DNA of 57,784 nt, filler included, from Dugesia japonica (taxonomy: Eukaryota), in assembly GCA_001938525.1 (NCBI GenBank). It is 6 parts of 6 records of this genome, joined end to end, with 100 filler letters (N's around TTAATTAATTAA, not from the genome) between each part and the next. Parts side by side here need not be neighbours in the genome. Positions count along the whole stretch, not along the records: positions 1 to 10,027 come from MQRL01624652.1; 5 more parts are not named here. One strand, 5' to 3'. Shown piece by piece: positions 1,572 to 56,348 of this stretch. Both the position numbers and the translations under genes were made by a program. The notes under the pieces are model-generated. The model was given only the letters and a program-made list of their open reading frames with translations. It was not told the origin of the DNA and ran no database searches. Numbering within the stretch: position 1 is the stretch's first letter; the number at the start of each line of letters is the position of its first letter.

Positions 1572-2818
1572 CCTTCTGATATTTGATTTGTTATAAAAAA
1601 TTTTATTAATAACATTTGTTTACTTTCTTTTCTCTATATAATCAATATATAATCAATAATTTCTTTTGTTTATTGTGAAAATTACATTTTGGGTATTTAT
1701 TCACTTTTAATATATTTTTAACCATTGATTTCTGAATGATAAAATTAAATATTTTCAAAATTACGGAAATAAACTAAGGCTTACATCAAAAAAGTTTCAA
1801 AAAAATATTTTTTCTTTAAATTTTTATTAAAGTTACAAAAAAAAATTCAAAAAAGCTTTAATCAATCACAACTCCTAAAGAAGATGAAATCGATAATTTT
1901 GGAAAACCAAAATATCGATTTTTCAATTTGAAGGTAAATATTAATTTTGTTTAAATTAAATCTTTTTATTCTTATTTTGATTGGATAATATTATTAAAAT
2001 TTATATTGATGTCTGATATAATTTTTTTGATCAAAATTTCTTCGAGTTTTTTTCTATAGAGTGGTCAGAAAAATTAGCAACTCAAAAAATTTTGAAAAAA
2101 TTCATTATAAGGATTTACCATTCCCGATTAAATACTTGACTAAATCTTCCAAAAATTACCAAAACTGAGGAAAAATTTGACCACATTCCACCTCACCGAA
2201 TAAATTCCCAACTAAACACAAAGGAAAAATTAAACACCACTTTCAATTTATTTTTAAAAATTTATCCCCTTTTTTAATTTCTTTTAAAAAACGTATCCCC
2301 TCTTTTTCTAACGTCGACGGGGGCTTATTATGGATAAAATCAAGAGGGGATACGCGCGACTATCTACCTACTACTTAAATTATATTAAACGTTTCTATCT
2401 ATCTGCTATCTATCTTTCTCTGCTGAGGTTTCTACCAAACACCGTTTCTGCTGGAAATGGATGAAGATTTCAATATGGGGACGGATCTAATACCCAAGTT
2501 GTTGTCAGATTATGCGCTGGATTTTAAGTCCCTACGTTTTAAATCCACTGAAAAGGAAACGACCAAAACATACAACGAAAATAATTGTGGAGAATATGAA
2601 CAACGTGGAGAACAAAAAGAGAGTAGAAAGAATGCAGATCAATATGCTACAGGCAAGCAAAGCGAGAAAGAGTAAATCGTTATGGCACCCACCATCTTCT
2701 GACAAAGATAATGAAACCATTAAGCAAGTATTTGAATTGCAAACGATAATGGAAGAAATAAATAATAAAGAGGAAAATAATTTGTTATTGGATGTCGCCG
2801 AAGTGCTAATGGCGTTCA

Positions 2819-4549
2819 ATGAAATTAAACCAAGTTTCGATAGGTTACATCAGACTTTTGCTGGAGAAATTGATCCTAGATCGAGGTAAACAGTTGATGG
2901 AATTGGAGATTAAGTCATTTAAAGTAAAGATTTATGTGGAACACCAAGTAACCCGTCATGTACGAATACATAAAACGGATCGATGGTGCGACATTGCAGA
3001 AAGAGTCAGATGCATGATAAATATGGTTGGAAAAAGCCTATATTTCAGTCATGATAGAATAGAAGATACTTCGATAGAGCCTGCGTTGTTAAATGGATTA
3101 GGGAGTAACTCAAAGATTGGTCTATATCTTAGAAGCAAACCGGATCATAACCAGGTTGGTGGAGGAGCTGAGAATCTCCAAAAGAAAGTTAAACAGATTT
3201 GGAAGTGGGTGAGAGACAATATGGAGTTGGCATGTCACCAAAAAGTATTGAAAGTGATAAACAAGGAACAACAGCAGCAAATAGAGAGTATGGAAGCAAT
3301 CCATAAAAGGAATGCGGACAATATNNNNGAAAAAACCAGGAAAGAAAGTGAGTTGGATTACGAAATACAAAATTTAGTGAACATTATACAGAGAACTACA
3401 AAGAATTTTCAAGAAATCACAAGTGCATCTCATTATCTTTTAGCACAGCAAATTGGGGACGAAAGACGAGCGGATTTGGAAAAAGAATTTTATGGTTTTC
3501 AAAAACAAGGAGAGGCAATGGATATGATTATTACGCTTTTACTGTCGTCGTGGAGAATGGTAACAGAAGATGAAATTATTACTAGACCGAGGATCACATT
3601 ACCATCTCCAATAGAATTTCCAGAAAATCGATAGTTATTGTTGTGTGAGTATTGTGGAAAATTTGGACACCAAGAAAGTAGGTGTTGGTTGTTAAAGATA
3701 TGTTTCAAATGTCAAGCAAAAGGACACGTCTAGAAGAATTGTCTGGTAAGAAATAGACCAAGCATTATAAGTGAAAATCAACAGGTAAACAGATGTAACT
3801 CTAGAGTGAATGAATGTCGACGAATACATGAGGTTCTAAATAATAGAAGCGTTGAGATCAATGGAGCAGGTCACTATTAAGAAGCTACTAGGAGGAATAA
3901 TTTATGCAACCGTTATCCAGAAAGAAAACCGCAAAATCTATGCCCAGTAACAATTCCAGGTGATGATATTCTGATGAAAAAGATGAGGATAAATGGCATA
4001 GAAATCAAATGCATGCTAGATACCGGGGCGAGCAGATCGAAAATCGATTTTAAAACAATAAGTGAAGAAGATGTAATAAGAATTCGTAAAGAAAAAACTC
4101 AGATGCTTACAGTAACAGGAAAGTCAATCGACGTAATCGGGGAACTGGATTGTCGGATATCCGATGGTGACTTCAAGTGTATGTATTCAATGAAAGTAAT
4201 CGAGAATTCAATGTTTGAATGTGTTATTGGATTAGACCTGTTAAGAACAATGTTTCCAGATGGTCAACTGGATATGAATAGATTCAAAAAAGAGGTTAGT
4301 AATGACTCTGATGAAATTGAAGGTAGAAATGAATCCTATACAAAAGAAAACGAAACAAGGAAAGAATATCAAGAAAAGGTGATTGGGAGAAAGCAAGAAC
4401 AAATTGATCACAAAACAAATCATGTTACGAACCAGGGTTTTGTGTTTAAACGGCGGCAATCAAGGCTAAGAGAATGGAAAAGTTTGAGTTGCGCCAGCTG
4501 CGTGAAGGAAAAGGCTGAAGTAGATCTGCCTGTTAGAAACGGTGGGTAA
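2819..4549 (+). pseudogene. Gag-protease polyprotein (Ubl domain, coiled coil, two CCHC knuckles, retropepsin)
   Basis: One frame with premature stops at 3632, 3731 and 3878. CEYCGKFGHQESRC (3644-3685), CFKCQAKGHV*KNC (3701-3742), MLDTGASRS (D at 4019) and CVIGLDLL. Probably begins further upstream (2457/2512) via frameshifts. Confidence 0.85.
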
Positions 4550-6689
4550 AATTTTGTGTTTGGAGGGTACAATTGATATGCGTAGTCCATTAAAAGATAC
4601 GGTAAATGTGTTGCATGAGGCAAAGACACGGATGAAGTTAATACAAGCCGTACATGTCAAAGGTCAATCATTGTCACCAACAGAACAAGAAGGATGGTGG
4701 AGTGATATTATGCCTCAGGTGCAAGGCATCGACGAGGACGTCGATTTTTCGAAAGAGGGGAGTGATTATGGATCACTACTATTTGAAGCACGCCGGAGGA
4801 GAATGCATCAACAACTAACTAATAAAAAGCAAATAATTAAAGAAATACAAGGAGACAATAGAGTATTTACTGAATTAGCAAAAAGAACGTTATCGGACAG
4901 GTCTGAACAAAGTTTGGAAGATATGTGGGCAGATCTGTGTCAGGCGGGACTTGAAGTGAAAACGAACCATGTGGAATACAAAGCAAAGCAAGTCAACAAG
5001 ATAGCGGAAGCGGTACAATTTATAAAAGAACACAACGGGCATGGAGACCCCAAAGTGGAACAATTAAAAGGGTCCGTACAGCTAGTACAAACATTGGGAA
5101 AACTAGTAGAAGAGTTGGAGGCAGAGAGAAATGAAATTCAACAAGATCAGGAAATTCCAAGGAAGGCGTGTCAGATATCAAATAAATGGAACAAGCGGAT
5201 GTATGCAGTGTTATTATTAATTGTATTTAAAGTGGTAAATAGCGAGGAGTGCTATAATTATGAAGATGTAAACAATGAACATAAAATACACATAACACGT
5301 TATAATACTGAAATACAAACGATATCTAGAAAACGGTTAAAAAGAGTAACGTCAACTAATGATTGCAGTGAAAGTATAAATAGCAAAATTGCGTATAAAT
5401 GGATGGAACCCACCATCTCAGTCGAGGACCAGTCAATTGGGGCAGTGATACACAGAGAATTTTGGAGTTTATCGATTGAGGTCAAAGGCAACATACTACA
5501 GGAATTAAGGCTCGCACACTATAACAAGGAAACAGGAGATGTATATCGAGACGAAAATTGGCAACTTATTTGCAAAGGGAAGACAAAATTGTTTAGAGTA
5601 TATTGGGTTTTCAGTATATATTATCGTACCGAATTTCTGATCCAGTATATAACGCAAGACGGTAAAAATCCAGTATGGTTAACTAACCGAGATGATTGTC
5701 CGAGAAGCAAGCATTATACGTGTTACAGTTGTGAAAAATCGGATCGAATAAGATAATTAGAGTACGATGGGAATGACGAACCCAGCAAATTAAAAGACAA
5801 AGAGAAACATTACAATTTGGGGGATGGAGTGAAATTGGCATGCAAATAAATAACTTGAAAACGGAGAACATGGTGGACACGTTTACAATTACCATAAAAC
5901 GAGGTAATAAACAAAAGGCACGATTTGGATATTACAAAGAATTACGAGAATGGACAAACGGAGAGTTTCTACTGGAATTTGAATGGTGGAAAAGTCAACA
6001 AGAGTTAGTAATAAAAATGAAAAAAAGTTTGGAGTATGGGTCAAGTTAGAATATATTGTAGTTTTTGGATTACCGCTGAGCAAAAATTCGTTAAAATCTA
6101 ATATTACCGTGACAACAGCAAAATCGACTTCATTAAAAACAACGACGAAAACGTATCCAAATACGACGACAATAGCGACAACACCAATAATGAAGAGTAG
6201 TACGAGAGATACAAGTGCGCGAAGAAAAGTGATAAATATTACGATGACTAGGTATGTGACGGCGACAATAGAAAGCGAACAAAAGAGAATGCCATCAAAT
6301 GTGTTAAATAAACAACAGGAGGATTTTATTGAAAAATTGATGAAAGAGTTGGTAAGGACCGGTTCACGAAGGACATTTCCGGCAAAAGCTAAGTTGAGGC
6401 ACGAGGCATCAACGATGCAAAGCAAAATGGAAAATGAAAGGAATTGGTCAGCAGGACTCATTGGTGAAGTAGCAGGGGTCATTACGATGATCATGATGAC
6501 GATTATAACAATATTAATTTGTAAAGCAAAACGAGGGCAGTATCCGAGACTGCGTTTAGAACCNNNNNNNNNNNNNNNNNNNNNNNNNNNNNNNNNNNNN
6601 NNNNNNNNNNNNNTATAACAATATTAATTTGTAAAGCAAAACGAGGGCAGTATCCGAGACTGCGTTTAGAACCGGAATTAAGAGAGTAG
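4542..6689 (+). pseudogene. Helical domain followed by env-like type I glycoprotein (frameshifted)
   Basis: Internal signal-like MYAVLLLIVFKVVNS (5199), RKRLKR furin site (5328-5345), Cys/Trp-containing ectodomain, Thr-rich stalk, TM GVITMIMMTIITILIC followed by KAKR. Spans ORFs 4542, 5840 and 5983. Confidence 0.6.
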
Positions 6690-7077
6690 ACAGAAAAATA
6701 TTTACACCAGCCAAGAGAGTTCGTGCAGTTGAGAGTTTCTGAGGGAGGAACTGAGTCGTTGTGGAGTTATTGAGGAGATCAGTGGAAGCAAAGTTGTAAA
6801 TAAATTACCTGAAATGTAACAGTAAGGTACACAATTTAGTTTTTGAGTAGCTCGAATTGTAAAGTAGAGCATAGCTGAGTAAATTAAAATTAAAATATGG
6901 AGTAATTTGTAAACTTGTTTTGGAATGGATCACTGTAGTATCTTCATAGTAGTATTTATTTAGTAAAATGGAACAGAAACAAATGACAATGAATGGACGA
7001 CTAACAGTAAATGTGGATCNNNNNNNNNNNNNNNNNNNNNNNNNNNNNNNNNNNNNNNNNNNNNNNNNNTTAGTAAA

Positions 7078-7593
7078 ATGGAACAGAAACAAATGACAAT
7101 GAATGGACGACTAACAGTAAATGTGGATCTAGACGACGTCGACAGAACGATTACGGAGGAGCCGGCGCAAACTTATATCCAACTGCTTAATCAGCTTTTA
7201 AATCCTTATTTTACAATGGAAAACTTGTGGGACGAACATTGCAGAAGCGTAATGAGAAATTCAGATGTACTAAATGAACAATTACAACAGACCCAACAAT
7301 TAAATGCAACCCTTGTGGAGAATCAAAATTTTTATGTGATGCAGGTACACCGATTGAATGAAATAGTGGAAATTCAGAGATAACAGATTACCGAGAATCA
7401 GAATTTTTACCTACAAACTTTGAGTGGAACTAACAAAATAATAGAGGATCTGAGACACCAAGTGGAGGAGTTACAAGCCTATAATGCAGAACTTATTCTA
7501 TCCCAAATTAACCGATTACCGAGCGTATCCGCCATCCTGAATACTATCGAGACGAGCGAGACGATGTGGTATCGAGAAGAGAGTAACGTATGA
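7078..7593 (+). pseudogene. Accessory coiled-coil ORF with duplicated ENQNFY motif
   Basis: ORF 7078-7383 reads on past a TAA into QITENQNFYLQTL...; heptad-rich. Confidence 0.45.
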
Positions 7594-7777
7594 CAACGGA
7601 TGCCAAGATGTAGAGTATTGTAAAGTATGTGTTAAATAGTAACTGTATTACTATGCAAAATAAATGTATTCCAAAAATCAAAAACAGTAAAAGTAACAGT
7701 AAAATATCGTATAAGTAGAGTGCCAATTATAGTTATATAATCAGTGCGTAATCAGAATAATTCCATTTTGTATATAG

Positions 7778-8027
7778 AACGTTTGAGGATTTTCAAAAAT
7801 TGTGGAGGTGTGTGGTGAAAGAATTTGAGGAGACTGTAGCATTAATATGTAAAGCAAAGACAGAGAAAAGGATGAGGTGAGGAGAATGCGAAGTTGAAAC
7901 AGTTTCAGTATTAAATTTACCTTGTGAGCATGTAGCAGTTTGTCAGAAATATCACCAGAGAAACGAGCTCAAACGATGCGCAATGTGTAAATGGTCGATA
8001 GAGTAGTGGTATGTGGTGTATCTATGA
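7778..8027 (+). pseudogene. IAP/MDM2-type C-terminal RING finger exon
   Basis: *GEC...LNLPCEHVAVCQKY...LKRCAMC...WYVVYL*. First Cys codon reads TGA; preceded by an AG acceptor. Confidence 0.7.
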
Positions 8028-8233
8028 GTGAGATACCCGGTAAACCTGTAAATAAAGTTACAATCAAGATACAGTACAGTAAAAGTAACTAAGGAAACAA
8101 TATTTAAACAATTTGTAAATATAAGTCTCAACTAAAAATTTGGTTAAATAGTAAATTCAATGATTTTTAACTCCTAATGTCTGAATTATGCAAATAAAGT
8201 ATATCGTGTATTACTTATATTTCAATTAAGAAA

Positions 8234-9127
8234 ATGGCATCTCGAAGTTCAAGTAGTATGGCTCAACAGAGAGGAGCAATCAGACGATACTGTGAAAATA
8301 ATGCTCGACCCCATTCAGCCAATGAACCTGTAAAATTCAGTGCGATCAAGGAGAAAACGAACCTCAATGCGCCCAGAGGCGAAATAAAGTCGTTTGAATT
8401 GAGAGGAGTAGAATCAAAAAATTACCTGACTGAAGGGGAATCACGAAGAAGGCGGGGTGATGTACGAATTCAAAGAGAAAACAAGCAAATACACGATAGT
8501 GTAAGAGAAAGATTCTTTTGGAAAAACTTATGCGCTGAAAGAGAGGAGGAGATCATAAAGTTGCAACAAGAGCTAAATAACATTCGCAAGCGACCAATAA
8601 AGCAAATCCACGAATTAGAAACTTAAATAAATTGGCAACAGAAAAAAATTAAAATGCTAGAGAAAACTATTGAACGTAATAATGAAGGCCGTATTACAAA
8701 TCAACAAGTACAACAATAGAGACTGGATCAGATACTACAAAACAATGAGCGGCTGATGAGAGAAAGCTTAATATGGAAATTGGAGAAAGAACAGAACAAT
8801 ATAGACATACAACATCTAGAAAATGCTGTAAAACATCTTCATGACGAAAATGCGCGTCTCAAGGAAGTTACAATCCGAGTAGTGATTCCCCCTCGACAAG
8901 TCAATTTGACGAAAGTGGAACAAACATTTTACACTTATAAAACAAATGGGCGACCTGTAGCCCCACAGATTAGTTTACTTAATCAACAGGCCATCCAGAA
9001 GAGACAAACACCACGATCCAATTCCCAATCCAGTAGATCCAGTACATCTTATCTTACGACTTCGACAAATGAGCAGTCGCAATGGCCATATTCAGCATCC
9101 GAGGAGGATCTGTTCTGGGGCCGATAA
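8234..9127 (+). pseudogene. Accessory coiled-coil protein (about 297 codons, two internal stops)
   Basis: ORFs 8234 and 8756 are in the same frame, and the sequence between them reads as coiled coil. Confidence 0.5.
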
Positions 9128-10027
9128 ATTCTTCGTGTCGAGCAGTTCTATGCTGCGTGTAAACTATGTAAATATTTTTCGTAATGAGTAAAACTATTCA
9201 TATTTGTGTCTCTGACAATTTCTATACCCAAATGTTCTCTGACAATTCAATGCTGTCCATTTGGTCGTCTCATGTGTATTCTGCCGTCTATGTTGTCAAT
9301 CTATTCCAAATCAATTCAGCTATCTACGAGCCGAAGGTGTCCTCCGAATCCGGTATGTCGATCAAGAGAAGATCTAAACAAGTTGACTTTTTGATTGTTT
9401 TATGATCCTATGGAGATGTGAATTCGATGTTGTTAATTATATTAAAGTGATCCGGTTATTTATAATGACAATTAAGATTTAAATAGTGAACATAAAATTG
9501 ATTCAGTGGTGAAATTTGATTAACATCTGCATGTGTATTTATGATATTTGATCGAAATAATGTATTTTCAATTGTTTTTGTTATTTTCTTCTTATTTCTT
9601 ATCTGTGTTTATTTTATGACATATCAGAATCTTGCTTGAGGGAACTTTCTAACTAGAGTGTGAATGGAAATCGAGCTTCCATAGACCTAGTTTTCGTTGA
9701 AAAGAGTATTATGAAATTGAGAAGAATTGACGACAACATAAACAAAGAATTTAATGAGAAATTCCGGGACAGGATTTTTTCGAGGCCCCCAGTAATTTGT
9801 TGGGAGGGAACACCAAAATGGTGAAATAATAGAAGAGGTAAAGATGGGCAATGGTTGCCGAAAATAGAAAAGAATCGACACAAAATTGATGGTCTAGACC
9901 AGAAAATTGAGTATTATGTACAATAAAATCATTATTATTATTATTATGGTCACTATTATTATGTAGTTATTATTATTATAATTATTTTGGATTATGCTTA
10001 GAAAATATCGAAAAATGAAAATTGGGC

Positions 10028-11665: not shown

Positions 11666-12568
11666 TCACAAAGATTCACTATCATCGAAAACAAAATTAA
11701 GAAGTTTTGACTCAAATTCCACTAGACTTTGAGTGTTCCTTATTCTTTGCAAAATGATCAATAAGTACCCACCGCTTACACAAATAATTAAAGATGTGAA
11801 GCTAAAAATAATTAAAAATGCTGTTTTCAAAAAGTGATCATTGAAATTTATATAATCATTATGAACTTCAAAATTGAAAATCTCATCATTGATAATTGTA
11901 TAATTAAACAATGTATCCCGACATTTTATTTTCTTTAATAGCATTGTTCTTTCTAAAAGAATTAATCCCATATGATTTTTTTCACTATTTGGATAATAAA
12001 AATGGGTTTTATTCAAATTATCGTCCATAATTTCTAAAATCGTCCGACCACCTTTATTATCATAAAGTCGACAACCCACCAGAATTATATCACCTTCTTT
12101 CAAAAACCGTTGTTTGAATTTCCTTTGAGAAGTATGAATCCATTCTATTTCCATATCTCTTAAAGTAGCTTTTTGAATTGGGATTTTAATGGTTTTCATT
12201 GGAGATTTGAAAAATAAATAAATAATTTCCCAATTATCACGAGTTTCATTTTCATTTAACAATAAAATTATCAAAATTTTCGGTTGATCTGGATATTGAA
12301 TTATTTTAAATGTGTGTTTGATTTCGTTTTTTAATGATCTATCGAGAAAATTTAAATTCGGATTTATCGATAAAATCCGATTTTCATTTTGATAAATTTC
12401 TAATTCACAATTCTCTGTCCATTTATTCAGTAATGATCTAATTGAAATTGTTGTGTAAATATGTTGAACTACAAGTTCAGGATAAAACTTTACTTCAATG
12501 TTAGCATGGAGAATTCTCCATATTGAAATAAATACAATATTAATTAATAATTGAATTTTCTTTTCCAT
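11666..12568 (-). CDS. Intronless 300-aa type I membrane protein, possibly two Ig-like domains
   Basis: Uninterrupted 903-nt ORF in very AT-rich DNA; N-terminal signal peptide, beta-rich ectodomain with LKEGDIILVGC...KIKC, several N-x-S/T sites, one TM, short tail. Confidence 0.7.
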   Translation of the reverse strand: MEKKIQLLINIVFISIWRILHANIEVKFYPELVVQHIYTTISIRSLLNKWTENCELEIYQNENRILSINPNLNFLDRSLKNEIKHTFKIIQYPDQPKILIILLLNENETRDNWEIIYLFFKSPMKTIKIPIQKATLRDMEIEWIHTSQRKFKQRFLKEGDIILVGCRLYDNKGGRTILEIMDDNLNKTHFYYPNSEKNHMGLILLERTMLLKKIKCRDTLFNYTIINDEIFNFEVHNDYINFNDHFLKTAFLIIFSFTSLIICVSGGYLLIILQRIRNTQSLVEFESKLLNFVFDDSESL

Positions 12569-13414
12569 ATACTAACTAATCGATATAATTTCATAAATGA
12601 AATAGAAATAGAAATTAAGAAAAACATACTATTGCACTGTGACGCTCCCTCCTCCGAAGAGAAGTATTGAACTTATGGAGTTCTATAGTAGTTCTTCGGA
12701 TTTGTAATTTTTTGTACCAGTTGTACGGACATTTTTATGACTGTCCATTTTAACTCTTTACCGCTACTACTGATCTTTCATTTGATTTTATTTTTCTTTC
12801 TTTCACTTCATTTTTTTCTTATCATCTAATGTTTCTGTTTCTTTCTTTATAGTCTTTACTTTTATTATATGAGTCTTCTTTCCTTTCTAGTCATCCTTTG
12901 GCACTGATGCTCGCTTAACAGTTTCCATATTTGTAATTATATTTCTTTCTTATTTCTCTCATTATTGTTTTGTTTAATATGTTTATTTATATCATTCTTT
13001 CCCTTGCTATATACTTACATTTCAGACATTTTTCACTTCCAATTTTTGTTCTAACTTTCTCCTGCCACTTCTCTTGTTTTTTTATCTATGTTTCTTCGAT
13101 TTCTTAGTATTTCTTTCTTTTATGTAGTATTATTTATATTTCTTTCGATTCCTTTCTTTACTATTGATTTGATATAGTTCTTATCTTTCTCGACATTTTC
13201 TTTCTACGTTTGCTTTTGTCTCCCGCTGATTTTGATTCCTACTTTGCATTTAAACACTTCAACTTCTTTCATTATGTTTATATCTTCCAATTTTCTTTAA
13301 AGGTTATGCCTTTTAGTTGTGATTAAACACTTTGTGCTTAGAAGTTTGTTTCTTTCATGTAATTCTTTTACCTCCTGCCTGTTTCGTCTTTTTGTCCCTA
13401 GAAATTTCCATATA

Positions 13415-18449: not shown

Positions 18450-19343
18450 CTTATTCTGATAATTGAATGATTGTTTATATCAAGAATTCTTTGAATTGTA
18501 TGGAATATCTATTAGAAGGGAAATAAAGTAATTTGTTAAGAAACCTCAAAATGTCTTATACCAGTTGGAGTAGCTGGTAAATAATCAAAATATTTAATAA
18601 AAACTACTTTTTACCAGAGGTGTTTTCAAGTTTATTTCGAAAACTTAAGGAAAACAATTTTTATACCACCAAAAAAATTATAAAGTGCATTAAAACTCGA
18701 GTGAATGCCANAAGAAAAGAAAAATTAAGATCTTTGTTAGATACCTGCATTGTGGAAAAATTTCTCGAAGTAATGAAGATTTAACATATTCATAAAAAAT
18801 AATAATACATACCATAATAGCTAATAACATGTATCCAAATTTTATTATTTCTTAAAGTTGATGTAATTGATGCAGATAATAAATCAATGACATCTAAATA
18901 TATAAACTTGAAAGAACATAATCAAGAACTACAAAATAACAGAAAAGAGAAAGCAGATTCCAAAAGAAAATAAACCAGAAAATCAGAACAATACATTAAA
19001 GATTGGAGATGGGGTAATGGTAAAAACAGAAGAGAGATGGTTACTTAAAAAAAAGATATAGAGGACCGTGGATAGTAAGCAAGTTACTCAGTAATTATAA
19101 TTTAGAATGGGATGATGGAATGAAAGAAATTCGTCGAAATCTTCACCAAGTTAAACGATTCAATGGAATATTCAGAAATAAAAAAGAAACAGAATCGATC
19201 ATTAGTGTCACATATTCGTCAGTAAACAACAGTGATGTAAAAGCTGTTCTTATAGACAACTCAGAACAATATAAAAGGCGATATCCAATTAGAGAAAGGA
19301 AGCCAAATCCCAAAAATATGATCAACTCTTAAAAGAAAGGGGA
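18450..19343 (+). mobile_element. Ty3/gypsy integrase C-terminus and polypurine tract
   Basis: GD.VMVK...KRYRGPWIV (GPY/F module), RRYPIRERKP tail, PPT AAAAGAAAGGGGA at 19331-19343. Confidence 0.7.
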
Positions 19344-19344
19344 T

Positions 19345-19590
19345 TGTGATGTATCTTAATAATATTAATAAATTTGTGTAGTTTGCAAATAAATTGCAGT
19401 TACTTTATTGCTTATCAATAACAAATAGATAACTATATTTTTGTTGGGAAACATTAAATACTCATAACAAACATAAATATAACAAACACAGTATCCAAAC
19501 AACTCAAATACAAGATTCAGAAGAAAAAAATCTCACAATCATCCGATTCAAGCCAAAATCCAACACCAGCAAGCGGCAACTTGATCAACA
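19345..19590 (+). repeat. Putative 3' LTR
   Basis: Starts TGT right after the PPT; candidate end ...TCAACA. Confidence 0.5.
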
Positions 19591-19878
19591 TTTTATAATT
19601 CAGATATTTTTATTAAACTTCTATTAGAAGATTAATTTTATTTTATGTGTAATAATAATTCATGTACAAAATTTATTTTATTTTTCATCTGTATCTGTAT
19701 GTTGGGCTGGAACACCAAAATTAGTCGAGNAACTAAAGAAATACAGAAGGGTGAAAATATATAAAATAAAGAAGAATTTGCACCAAAATCGATGATCTGG
19801 ACCAAAAATATTATTAAGAAAAGCATTATTATTATTATTATGGTTATTATTATTATGTAGTTATCATTATTATAATTA

Positions 19879-19980: not shown

Positions 19981-20085
19981 GATATAAAGTTTGCTAAAGC
20001 TTTGGAGGCGCCAGCATATGTTATAATATATGGAGCATTTGAAAGCGAAATCCGAATAAATGCTAACAGAACAGTACTACTGTAA
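19981..20085 (+). CDS. C-terminus of Polinton major capsid protein (double jelly-roll)
   Basis: DIKFAKALEAPAYVIIYGAFESEIRINANRTVLL* resembles the Polinton MCP end (F..AL......IY..F...I.I...R.V) and lies just upstream of the protease. Confidence 0.65.
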   Translation, partial: DIKFAKALEAPAYVIIYGAFESEIRINANRTVLL

Positions 20086-20296
20086 ACAATATCTAATAAA
20101 ATCAAATAATCAAAAGTATGAAGTAAGTTTTTTATTTAATTTNNNNNNNNNNNNNNNNNNNNNNNNNNNNNNNNNNNNNNNNNNNNNNNNNNNNNNNNNN
20201 NNNNNNNNNNNNNNNNNNNNNNNNNNNNNNNNNNNNNNNNNNNNNNNNNNNNNNNNNNNNNNNNNNNNNNNNNNNNNNNNNNNNNNNNNNNNNNNN

Positions 20297-20500
20297 GAAC
20301 ATTGGATAGCAGTTTATCATAAGCCTGAAATTATTTCAGTTTTTGATCCTCTTGGATTTTATTATCCACATATATTGATCTCAAATCTCTCAAAAATATC
20401 AAAGTTAATTGAATATAACAGAATTAGATTTCAAAATCCTTTTACAACAACATGTGGTCAACATTGTCTATTGTGGCTTAAAAGTCAACATTTTATGTGA
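20297..20500 (+). CDS. Adenain-like (C5) cysteine protease of a Polinton, 5' part in gap
   Basis: EHWIAVY...FDPLG...FQNPFTTTCGQHCLLWL carries the H, D, Q and C catalytic pattern. Confidence 0.85.
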   Translation, partial: EHWIAVYHKPEIISVFDPLGFYYPHILISNLSKISKLIEYNRIRFQNPFTTTCGQHCLLWLKSQHFM

Positions 20501-21719: not shown

Positions 21720-22242
21720 CGTCAAATCTTCATTTATGGAACATTCCGATAACAATTGTTTTGATTTATTTGGTTCATTTCTACATGTTGTACCAATCAA
21801 AGTGATTTCGAATTCAACTAATAATCCAGCAACAATCTTAAATAATAGTAAAAAAAAGAATTAATTTTACTTTCAATTTAAATAGTGAATCATGTTAATT
21901 AATAAAATATTGAAAACTATTTTCAACATTAAAATTAGTAATTTGAAAACTTAAATTTAAAATTAATTTCATTTAAAATATAAATATGTTCTATTTAATA
22001 AGAAAAAAGTTTTATAAATTACATGAAATAGTTACCTGTTTATAAATACTATGAACTTGATAAGGAGCATATGAAAAAGCACTGTTCAATCTTCCATTAT
22101 ACATGTTTATTGCTTCTCGAAAAATTTCTTCCAAGTGAGGATCTTTTCTTAATTCTGTAACACTAACACCTCGTTTTTGTCCGGTACATAGTAAATGACC
22201 AATTTGAATAAAAACAATGAATAGAATTTTTAATTGAATCAT
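21720..22242 (-). CDS. Secreted type 2 cystatin, exons 1-2 (22242-22036, 21836-21720)
   Basis: Signal peptide, N-terminal Gly, Q|IVAG motif formed across a phase-0 GT-AG intron, TTC...C disulfide pair; third exon not identified. Confidence 0.85.
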
Positions 22243-44170: not shown

Positions 44171-44959
44171 GTATGAAATAATATGTATGACAATTGGCAA
44201 TGTTACAATAAAATTTACTTATCCAAATTTATTAAATAATACTAATAAAATGTACAATTAAAAATGTAATTAAAAATAATGTTTACAGTTTCATAATCTT
44301 TCTGATCATTTTAAAAACGGGAAAGCCTTTTTCCAAGTATCGAAGCTCCAATTTGTTATAAAAATCGGTTCTAAGACAAAATTAGGTAAACGCAAATATT
44401 GAAATTAGAATTTTTGTTTATATAAATTATTTTGAATAGTGAATAGGCAATGTGATGATCGAGAAAAATTTTTCAGAAATGTTTTTTAATACTAGTATTA
44501 CTAAAATTCTAATTTAGATGTCATTTGTGGTTCTGAATAATAAAATAACTTATACATATAATGGTGATTTGGATTTGAATATTTAATGGATTGTAAATAT
44601 TTGTTTAGTGGTAAATATTTGTTTAGTCAGTTGTTTAGTTTCGTATAATTGAAACAACACATAAGAAATAATAGATATAAATAGGAAAGAATGTTAACTT
44701 TTAAAATTTGAGAATTGTTTCAAGTGATCCAAATTTAGATATAAAAAAGATAAATGAACAAAGTTTATTCCAAATTTTTCAAACATGTTCATAATGTTTG
44801 ACTGTAATTTGACTTTCCGTTGTTATAATGTCGATGTTTTATGGTATACGACAGAGCAGTCAACGGAAGAAATTCTTATTTGTTTAGAAGTGATAAAGTT
44901 AGTAAGATGGAATTGAAAATGACTCCTTAGATTTTGTGCATTTACAAATTATGACAATT

Positions 44960-45672
44960 TATTATCGAAAAGAATAAAAGAAAATCATTCCTGCATCGCA
45001 TAATTACTGGAGATGAAAAGCGGGTCTATTTCACCAATCCCGAGCATAAACGATGGTGGTTTGATCCAGAAGAACCGCCAAAGTCAACGGGAAAACGGAA
45101 TTTTCATGGGAAAAAGGTGCTTCTATGCATATGGTGCGATCACAAAGATATTCTGTTCCATGAGCTACTGAAACCTGGTGAAACAGTTAATGCTATCCGT
45201 TATGAACAACAGCTTTTGCTATTAAATGAAGAAATCACTGCCAAACGACCAGAATGGGCTGACAGTCATGGCAAAGTAATATTGCTCAATGACAACGCTC
45301 GGCCTTATGTCGCAAAACACCTTGCTGAGGCGATAAAACAGCTGAAATGGGATGTATTACCCCACCCGCCATACTTTACAGATATTGCTCCATCAGATTA
45401 CTATTTGTTCCGTTTAATGGCACATCATCTGTCAGAGCACAGTTTCAAAAATTACGAAGATGTCAAAATATGGTTGAACGAGTGGATTGTCACCAAATAA
45501 AACAAATTATTTTATGACGGTATTCATAAACTGCCCAAACTTTGGGAGGATGTTGTTAAGAATGATGAAAATTATTCCCAATAAAAGTTTTTAATAAAAC
45601 TGCTTTGTCTTTTTTTATATAGACTTTTTAAAAAAAGAGGTAAAAACGGCAAAGTCAAGCTTGTAGACTTAA
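44960..45672 (+). mobile_element. mariner (Mos1-like) transposon, 5' truncated
   Basis: ITGDEK...DNARPY...HPPYFTDIAPSDYYLF (DD34D), one stop; 3' TIR-like end ...AGCTTGTAGACTTAA + TA. Confidence 0.9.
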
Positions 45673-54400: not shown

Positions 54401-54479
54401 TAAACCACTGTATAATTACTAATAACTATGATTGATTAAAATATGAAATGAGATAATAATCCTTAACAGATCTTATTCA

Positions 54480-56348
54480 CTTCAAAATAAAGCAACTTGT
54501 TCATAAAATTCTTCTTAATGAAACCATAGAAAAAGAACAATCCACACCTAAAATTCAAAAAGCTTCACCTTTGATATTAAACTTTGTTAAGCGAGACAGT
54601 TTGGAAGATATAGTATCGAAGTTGGCTGCAGTTGATAATATTTCCATACGTGCTATAACGAATTCTGCATTTATTCGTGAATCAATTTCTAGTCGGGGTT
54701 ATTTTTTACCAAACTGCGAAACCAGTGTTATGAAATTGATACATCGTAATTTTGAATTAAAGAAAGACGAGGTGATTAAAATCATTGAACAACGTAAAAT
54801 ACTTGGCAATAAATTTAGTATCACCAGTGATGAATTGACAAGCTTAAGGAGACGTAGATACCTGAACATAAATATCCATGGAGAAAACGACGTATGCGTA
54901 AATCTTGTGCTTGTTCGAATTCCAGGATTTTGTAATGCAAATTATATGGTGAATAAAGTGAAAAATCAGTTGCTTAAATTTAAAATTAATTTTGAAAGTG
55001 ATATTGTATGCACTATTCATGATGGGGCTCCAATGATGTTAAAGTATAGAAGAACTTGCCCAGCTGAAATGATTATATATTTAAACCACAGTATACACTT
55101 AGGNNNNNNNNNNNNNNNNNNNNNNNNNNNNNNNNNNNNNNNNNNNNNNNNNNNNNNNNNNNNNNNNNNNNNNNNNNNNNNAGATGATTTTCAAGATTCT
55201 GAGGATGATCCCGGTATCGACAATTATGATGACGAAAATGTAACTATTTTTGAACAGTTAAAGCTGGTGAGGAAAATTGTGTGCTTTTTTAGATATTCTC
55301 CAGTACACAACAGCATCCTGCAAAATCATGTCAGAAATGAATTCGATCGTGAGTATGAACTACTCTTAGATATAAAGATTCGATGGAACTCGATTGCGCC
55401 CATGATAGAAAGATTTTTGAAGTTGAAAACGCAAATTTTACAAGGTTTAACAGATTTAAAATGCTCATTATTTGATGGAAAAGGTTGACTTTGAGCTATT
55501 GAAAAATCTCAATCATTCTCTACAGACTATAAAACTAACGGTGGAAGCATTAAGTCGAAAAGACGCAAATATTTTTGGTGTTGAGGACGTTTTATCTTTT
55601 TTGAAAAACAAAATGAAAGCAATCAAAAAGCAGAAATAAGTCGCGATTGTTATAAGTCAATTGAAAATCGAATTAAATTGAGAAAAAATTACATTAATGC
55701 TTTAATAAAATGTCTTGTTGATCTAACTTCAACAAATGGTCCAACAAAATCTACTCTTAGTTTTGCTACAGCTCTTATGAAGAGACTTTTTCCTGTTGAG
55801 ACTATGCGGTTCTCTGAGGCTGGACAAGAAATTATGTGTGAAGAATCCGCAGTCATAGTTGAATCAGATATAGAATTGGCTGAAGAACTGAATTCAGATA
55901 TTTCAAAAGCGTGCAACGTTAAGTAGAAATATCAAATGATATCATCACTTTAAAGCAAGAATTCAACAGCTACAAGAAAACTTCTATNAGAACACAAAAT
56001 CTTGAATTGCATTATATGGCATTGAAAACAGCGAAGTCGACTTCAACAGATTCGGAGCGAACTTTTTCGGTTTCTGGAATGTTCTGCACACAGATCAGAT
56101 CTCGTCTCTCATGCGCATCGCTTAATGCATTATTTTTTCTAAAATTTTATTATTTAAATGAAAAAATGCCGAAAATTTAATTTTATCTCTTTTAAATTTT
56201 ATTTATAAGAAATAAAAGTAATTTTTGTGAAGTTCAATATTCAACAATTTATTTTATTTTTATTCAGTTATCCGGTATACGCCGGATAATTTCAAAACGT
56301 CTATCCGATAACCGCGGTTTCAGAAAATCCGAATATTTGGAAATCCTA
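54480..56348 (+). mobile_element. hAT transposon with pseudogenised transposase
   Basis: FSITSDELTS, DGAPMM, HSIHL, LDIKIRWNS, hATC TSTDSERTFS...IRSRLS; CCGG-rich subterminal region ending ...AATCCTA. Confidence 0.9.

Follow-up and report, generated by a model that had tools for sequence, protein, structure and literature searches.

An IAP-type RING in a planarian retrotransposon is already known. Burro1 of Schmidtea mediterranea encodes B-IAP, a BIR-plus-RING protein which is reported to be anti-apoptotic and to shield stem cells from caspase-mediated apoptosis (Lee et al., Dev Cell 2026, as related in PMC13465017). Burro elements are described in PMC6431247 as giant, with a polyprotein of ~5000 aa bearing BIR/BCL2/MATH/ankyrin domains and an env between gag and protease. 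The same source lists CCHC Gag, SUMO-like, Smc-like coiled-coil, BCL2, BIR, env, and protease domains plus accessory ORFs, and reports decayed Burro fragments in Dugesia japonica. Flatworm errantiviruses have a gB-type env and the order GAG-ENV-POL (PMC13524379), and rotifer LTR elements capture other extra ORFs, a RING not being mentioned in the accessible portion of that paper (PMC5408684); PMC8532177 and PMC11410931 provide background on the subject only. Two systems are relevant as to mode of action: MDMX, which has no ligase activity and lowers MDM2 auto-ubiquitylation (PMC8700063), and baculoviral Op-IAP3, which stabilizes a host IAP (PMC7900435).

Here we analyze a D. japonica locus lying within a stretch of 57,784 nucleotides (the window) that joins parts of six records of assembly GCA_001938525.1. 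As with B-IAP, an IAP-type RING is found on what is likely a gypsy-like LTR element that may influence host cell survival. The two differ, by comparison with the published description of B-IAP only, in that B-IAP has a BIR plus a RING and an anti-caspase role, whereas the present ORF is BIR-less, has 82 codons, probably lies in an LTR, and is dead in this copy. The idea of a transposon-borne IAP advanced in an earlier, sequence-only reading of this DNA is therefore not new in kind, Burro1 B-IAP having been published. What sets the locus apart is a BIR-less RING mini-gene in a probable LTR, in which the likely E2 contacts are degenerate and the dimer tail is retained. Judged by titles and the opening lines of abstracts, the literature describes no BIR-less RING in a retrotransposon LTR, although the B-IAP paper, the original Burro description, and supplements may do so.

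A BIR-less, IAP-like RING ORF

The RING frame is as follows:

7779..8027 (+): 82-codon RING mini-ORF without a BIR; a helix at the N terminus, the C3HC4 RING itself at 7878-7988, and a hydrophobic tail in which an aromatic residue is conserved

The frame's hydrophobic tail terminates in YL-stop. With X in place of both in-frame stops, the protein matched Pfam zf-C3HC4_3, the check suggested in the sequence-only reading, at E = 2.4e-4 and 21.3 bits, under the 27-bit gathering cut-off; the last 54 residues alone gave E = 6.1e-5, and the window copy scores 21.3 to 23.2 bits with six of the eight zinc ligands present. Six PDB sequences were matched at E ≤ 1, the best three being cIAP1 (E = 0.0031), cIAP2 (0.031), and cIAP1 again (0.036), in keeping with the IAP-like RING that had been claimed. 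A RING-HC core pattern run over the six frames of the window had a single match, this ORF. The IAP-type trait of a C-terminal RING with a hydrophobic/aromatic tail is present, the tail Tyr aligning with the Phe of XIAP via P0003, a relative described below. Word-indexed homologue searches (longer or near lengths) returned nothing for the ORF, nor did a metagenome search with the RING locus. A helix is predicted over residues 2 to 31 with low confidence (model pLDDT 59). The fold search with this model gave no match at E ≤ 0.001, the top rows being the RINGs of IDOL, XIAP, and cIAP2; small BIR-less RING proteins occur among its viral fold matches, weakly, all at E > 0.2.

The absence of a BIR, also noted previously, holds for the window: there is no Pfam match and no strict BIR pattern in six frames, and the one match to a relaxed pattern is on the opposite strand, inside a coiled-coil ORF. 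IAP family membership is defined by at least one BIR domain, according to PMC4966970; the ORF is hence an IAP-like RING and not an IAP.

The window copy of the gene is dead. Its frame does not begin with a start codon (codon 1) and is interrupted by stops at codon 34, the position of zinc ligand 1, and at codon 76 in the tail. At codon 58 a Tyr takes the place of the sixth zinc ligand, so that ligands are intact at six of the eight positions.

The element and its other copies

The RING ORF is the middle one of three small genes in an LTR-like block of ~2.9 kb, downstream of a decayed coding region on the same strand:

2882..3175 (+): probable SUMO/ubiquitin-like domain, Gly-Gly motif near its end
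3644..3742 (+): pair of Gag-like CCHC zinc knuckles; below the Pfam cut-off for zf-CCHC_4 (E 0.0017) as well as for zf-CCHC (E 0.0061)
3881..4549 (+): aspartic protease of the retropepsin type with a DTG motif; above the cut-off for Asp_protease (28.4 bits, E 2e-6)
4524..5756 (+): unknown ORF; coiled coil, signal-peptide-like hydrophobic stretch at 5199, basic RKRLKR motif
5983..6689 (+): Thr-rich stalk, transmembrane segment (6466-6522; Kyte-Doolittle 2.27), and short tail, spanning the gap 6564-6613
6741..6750 (+): polypurine-tract (PPT)-like run, the only purine run of at least 10 bases in 6301-7000; putative PPT role
6752..9621 (+): putative gene-bearing LTR, ~2.9 kb, TG ... CA ends, T-rich U5-like end; presumed boundaries
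7078..7593 (+): coiled-coil ORF 1, 170 codons, one in-frame stop; no family found
8234..9127 (+): coiled-coil ORF 2, 297 codons, two in-frame stops, Ser/Thr-rich tail; no family found
9622..9648 (+): primer-binding-site (PBS)-like stretch directly after the CA

CCHC Gag-like knuckles together with an aspartic protease are traits of a Ty3/gypsy LTR element, and both lie upstream of the RING. The broken frames of the SUMO-like/CCHC/protease/membrane region run from ~2450 to 6690, with stops beside and inside the knuckles; since other contigs carry small indels near some of the frame breaks, the region is likely a single polyprotein in the family. No viral contig was recovered in a search with the protease locus. 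Of the ubiquitin-like domain claimed in the sequence-only reading, what stands is a lead, a probable SUMO-like domain that scores 0.90 in the Atlas against two Rad60-SLD/SUMO-like clusters, in 7th and 9th place after clusters without a name; on the other side, it had no Pfam match and its fold model was unusable (pLDDT 38). Sequence matches of this domain to caspase-7 in the PDB (E ≥ 0.25) were taken as chance.

The region 4524-6689 (+) resembles a type I membrane protein with a Cys-containing ectodomain; it follows the protease immediately, without an intervening RT or integrase, and may be a noncanonical env of an RT-less element. The ORF at 4524-5756 had no Pfam family, no word-indexed homologue, and no usable Atlas match. 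RT, RNase H, and integrase gave no Pfam match among the ORFs scanned over 2491-9124, and no YxDD or HHCC pattern occurs in the element.

From its layout, 6752-9621 would be an LTR followed by a primer-site-like motif. The AT skew turns to -0.195 at 9128-9620, and RNA reads from two runs have 9612-9648 in common and diverge on both sides of it. The window contains no second copy of the putative LTR. No complementary match of at least 9 bases indicative of self-priming was found for the PBS-like site, and none in the putative LTR either. A polypurine tract before and a PBS-like site after a single LTR would imply either tandem elements or a scaffolding chimera. An unrelated repeat of ~190 bases (9798-9984 and 19700-19878, 73% identity), running into an ATT microsatellite at scaffold gaps, truncates the element. 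Two assembly gaps joined by exact 60-base overlaps separate the protease region from the RING, so the protease-RING linkage could be chimeric between copies; the first 60 bases of coiled-coil ORF 1 are duplicated across the gap at 7020-7069.

Burro/GYPSM1, as described in PMC6431247, shares with the present element the CCHC knuckles, a probable SUMO-like domain, coiled coils, a protease, a membrane protein, and accessory ORFs. In contrast, the element here is ~7 kb, has no match for RT/RNase H/integrase, BIR, MATH, BCL2, ankyrin, or dUTPase, and places the Ubl ahead of the knuckles and the membrane protein behind the protease, the reverse of the order given for Burro. It is not filed as a Burro member and is at most Burro-like; both this affiliation and the LTR status are putative.

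Elsewhere in the window, a host COMM-domain exon lies at 903-1571 (+; Pfam E 1.4e-12), the first 180 bases of which occur on both sides of an assembly gap. A 301-codon ORF with hydrophobic ends and no Pfam match occupies 11666-12571 (-). By eye, 19024-19700 (+) resembles the integrase C terminus, purine tract, and ~350-base LTR of another gypsy element, an ORF at 20060-20500 (+) resembles an adenain-type (Polinton/Maverick) cysteine protease, 22012-22284 (+) may be a secreted cystatin-like exon, and 44955-45500 (+) and 54460-56180 (+) look like mariner-like and hAT-like transposase remnants, respectively. A decayed conventional gypsy with CCHC, RT, and RNase H (Pfam E 1e-6 to 1e-22) spans 24991-28315 (+).

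The sequence-only reading had placed the RING inside the element. Contigs of run X1 over 2200-9900 (5431 records) covered all 30 bins with graded identity: 744 at ≥99%, 1260 at 95 to 99%, 2143 at 90 to 95%, and 1284 under 90%. Their summed depth, which is not equal to copy number, was 158 to 665 over 2457-6311 (except one bin with a depth of 6344), 13,382 to 64,371 over 6312-7853, and 1,681 to 7,942 over 7854-9395, the jump falling in the bin 6312-6568, upstream of the putative PPT. Variable sites were represented by up to 35 distinct contigs each, with graded differences and a depth far above that of a single contig. The RING therefore belongs to a multi-copy mobile element, as had been proposed.

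These data bear on whether the RING is an independent host pseudogene brought beside the element by chance or misassembly. The two assembly gaps between the RING and the protease region, as well as the host COMM-domain gene on the same stretch (Pfam match at 1194-1571), would be compatible with such an origin; the number of distinct contigs per site, their graded differences, the excess depth, and the strand and junction motif (see below) that the RING shares with its neighbors speak against it. This explanation is largely refuted by the multi-copy evidence and we regard it as improbable in the extreme.

At the four lesion codons, the depth of contigs differing from the window, out of the total, was as follows:

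Codon 1: X4 950.5/1006.7; X9 38.9/44.7; X8 10.7/10.7
Codon 34: X4 313.1/316.5; X9 16.7/22.5; X8 21.4/21.4
Codon 58: X4 371.7/380.3; X9 44.8/44.8; X8 16.7/16.7; X1 1271.6/1271.6
Codon 76: X4 608.7/636.6; X9 51/51; X8 10.2/10.2

Because most of the depth in X4, X8, and X9 differs there from the window (94 to 99%, 100%, and 75 to 100%, respectively), the four lesions look private to the window copy. Other copies are open at all four codons, an initiation codon heads their RING frame, and they differ from the window at both lost zinc ligands (codons 34 and 58). Third-position sites in the RING ORF accounted for 5 of 6 sites polymorphic among copies versus 3 of 13 near-fixed differences (19 variable sites listed; binomial p = 0.018, Fisher p = 0.024), the sites coming from 40 of 112 rows and "polymorphic" meaning an X4 share below 0.8, a threshold set post hoc. 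This bias modestly suggests purifying selection across the family and neutral decay of the window copy.

The same observations weigh on the view that the element carries the RING along passively, as what is left of a captured host IAP or a truncated B-IAP, and that it has no function there. Depth in X4 was 133 to 820 over the RING body versus up to 14,716 in the flanks, indicating loss of the RING, or divergence past the 80% threshold, in many related elements; this would agree with passive carriage, as would a dead window copy and thin expression. Against it stand the third-position bias at polymorphic sites, the open frames of other copies at all four lesions, a start of its own and a downstream junction motif, and intact BIR-less relatives at 32 to 35% identity. 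We hold passive carriage to be very unlikely.

Stand-alone gene, splicing, and expression

A motif, AATAAA-N(10-22)-ACAGTAA, trails three successive ORFs, i.e., the polyprotein region, coiled-coil ORF 1, and the RING ORF:

6799..6825 (+): motif after the polyprotein region; putative polyadenylation/junction signal
7659..7690 (+): motif after coiled-coil ORF 1
8051..8082 (+): motif beginning 24 bases past the RING stop

The pattern, picked by eye and defined post hoc, has five matches in the window versus 0.28 expected, a number reached in none of 100 shuffles; the remaining two matches neighbor each other around 50,200, where the sequence is A/T-rich. Coiled-coil ORF 2 is not followed by the motif, and pairwise alignment of the intergenic spacers gave no significant pair out of 15. 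One X8 contig has a loose end of 19 A's behind 7664, which could reflect internal priming on an A-rich tract.

The sequence-only reading treated the RING as an exon onto which the upstream coiled-coil ORF might splice, and a last exon of a spliced accessory transcript (joined to coiled-coil ORF 1 or to a more distant exon) is a reading with some points in its favor. An AG stands just before 7778 and a GT donor-like site at the end of coiled-coil ORF 1; read by hand, a second AG ten bases on, at 7786-7787, would preserve the frame from that donor. RNA coverage is also low, and the joints considered were the two listed from 7440 on. Neither of these two joints connects coiled-coil ORF 1 with the RING, however, and the acceptor proposed in the sequence-only reading, when read by hand from the obvious donor, leads to a stop no more than three codons on. 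In addition, the RING frame of other copies opens with an initiation codon, and ORF 1 has an AATAAA motif of its own plus the one poly(A)-ended contig, internal priming being possible for the latter. Splicing of coiled-coil ORF 1 onto the RING is thus unlikely, the exon interpretation was not upheld, and a spliced last exon in general appears to us quite improbable.

RING expression is thin. Raw RNA reads covered the RING body in only one of four runs (X16, depth 2.42 over 7854-8110), with zero depth in X19 and X15 over 7854-8110 and in X17 over 7832-8055. The X16 reads come from other copies, since most of them have less than 90% identity. The RING body is spanned as well by two contig sets whose RNA origin is a guess.

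Relatives, E2 contacts, and proposed mode of action

An exhaustive HMMER search with the RING gave four matches at E ≤ 0.001 (P0001 to P0004). P0003 (111 aa) and P0002 (134 aa), from Logan assemblies, are intact short BIR-less RING proteins, with zf-C3HC4_3 scores of 38.8 and 32.1 bits, respectively, and P0001 is a double-RING protein; P0004, a repetitive bacterial-type Ig-domain protein, was dropped as spurious. P0002 and P0003 resemble the RING ORF in being short and BIR-less, in ligand spacing (including eight residues between ligands 6 and 7), and in a W-x-x-x-Y tail, but they are only 32 to 35% identical to it and have longer N termini. The 17 PDB matches of P0003 are headed by ten cIAP/XIAP/ML-IAP RINGs, followed by IDOL, MUL1, and MEX3C, and its tail Tyr aligns with the tail Phe of XIAP and with Tyr81 of the window. 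A phage collection had no match, nor did a P0003/P0002 alignment find one in viral contigs. The alignment recovered seven loci in metagenomes, five of them short matches; the two inspected, L001 and L003, are a RING gene with no relation to this one and, judged by eye, an IAP-like ORF with two BIRs, neither in an element context. The latter, at L003:598-1368, is an intronless ORF on a short metagenome contig, by eye a two-BIR plus RING IAP, and is unrelated to the element studied here.

Compared with the C-terminal RINGs of cIAP1, cIAP2, and XIAP (PDB 6hpr, 3eb5, and 4ic2), the window RING has the same C3HC4 core, preceding helix, and tail aromatic. It differs in having two extra residues between ligands 6 and 7 (the 8-residue spacing) and, ahead of ligand 2, an acidic residue in place of Val; the Pro that follows ligand 7 is missing, as are BIR, UBA, and CARD domains. 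Both the acidic residue (Val in cIAP1) and the missing Pro recur in P0002 and P0003, while P0001 keeps a hydrophobic Leu before ligand 2. The RING ORF and P0001 to P0003 have in common their zinc ligands, their tail, and a linchpin Lys. We take the positions before ligand 2 and after ligand 7 to be E2 contacts and the tail aromatic to serve dimerization. On this assumption, the E2-contact residues of the RING are likely degenerate and its dimer tail kept, a combination that would point to an MDMX-like partner. The homodimer prediction for P0003 was uninformative (score 0.02).

The main rival has the same element-borne mini-gene encode an active E3, with the helix binding a substrate (a host restriction or piRNA factor, or element proteins) that the RING ubiquitinates, apoptosis not necessarily being involved. 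The zinc ligands, tail, and linchpin Lys common to P0001 to P0003 fit such an enzyme, as do the small BIR-less RING proteins among the weak viral fold matches (all E > 0.2) and the probable Ubl in the same element. It is opposed by what the window RING, P0002, and P0003 have at the likely E2-contact positions, an acidic residue before ligand 2 and no Pro following ligand 7, and by the lack of a recognizable substrate-binding domain. We consider an active E3 with its own substrate possible, if on the unlikely side. With no BIR, a dead copy, and E2 contacts that are likely degenerate, the E3 or anti-apoptotic function attributed to the locus in the sequence-only reading was overstated.

Our best explanation, to which we give roughly an even chance, is that the window holds a dead copy of a stand-alone BIR-less RING mini-gene, likely an LTR accessory gene of a Burro-like gypsy element, whose working copies would act mainly as dimerization partners tuning IAP-type ligases and not as caspase blockers. 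It takes as established the RING similarity, the four lesions, the absence of a BIR, the multi-copy status, and the protease and CCHC knuckles upstream. Under this dimerization-partner explanation, 6752-9621 would be an LTR bearing three separately polyadenylated small genes, and selection would keep the family's RING ORF open. The N-terminal helix and aromatic tail would pair with a host IAP or an element-encoded B-IAP; the protein itself, with degenerate E2-contact residues, would have little or no ligase activity. By pairing, it would lower the self-ubiquitination of its partner and so keep host stem or germ cells alive, MDMX stabilizing MDM2 and Op-IAP3 stabilizing the host IAP serving as model cases. 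Both (PMC8700063, PMC7900435) resemble the mode proposed here in that a RING-bearing partner stabilizes another ligase by binding; unlike the RING ORF, for which binding is only proposed, both have further domains and experimental proof. A bolder version, which we find doubtful, would make the LTR a cassette of separately polyadenylated mini-genes in which a BIR-less pseudo-ligase RING heterodimerizes with host or element IAPs, with RT-less copies and solo LTRs spreading an apoptosis-tuning gene.

At present the locus amounts to one dead copy, and the function of the gene is hypothetical. Burro1 B-IAP is reported to support planarian stem-cell survival and regeneration. A second RING cargo, BIR-less and in another element layout, would suggest repeated recruitment of IAP modules by planarian retrotransposons and, if the dimerization-partner explanation is true, would indicate a second mode of action, ligase tuning via dimerization rather than caspase binding. 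Working copies may tune host ubiquitin ligases. If the gene does lie in the LTR, solo LTRs would multiply the RING gene independently of intact elements.
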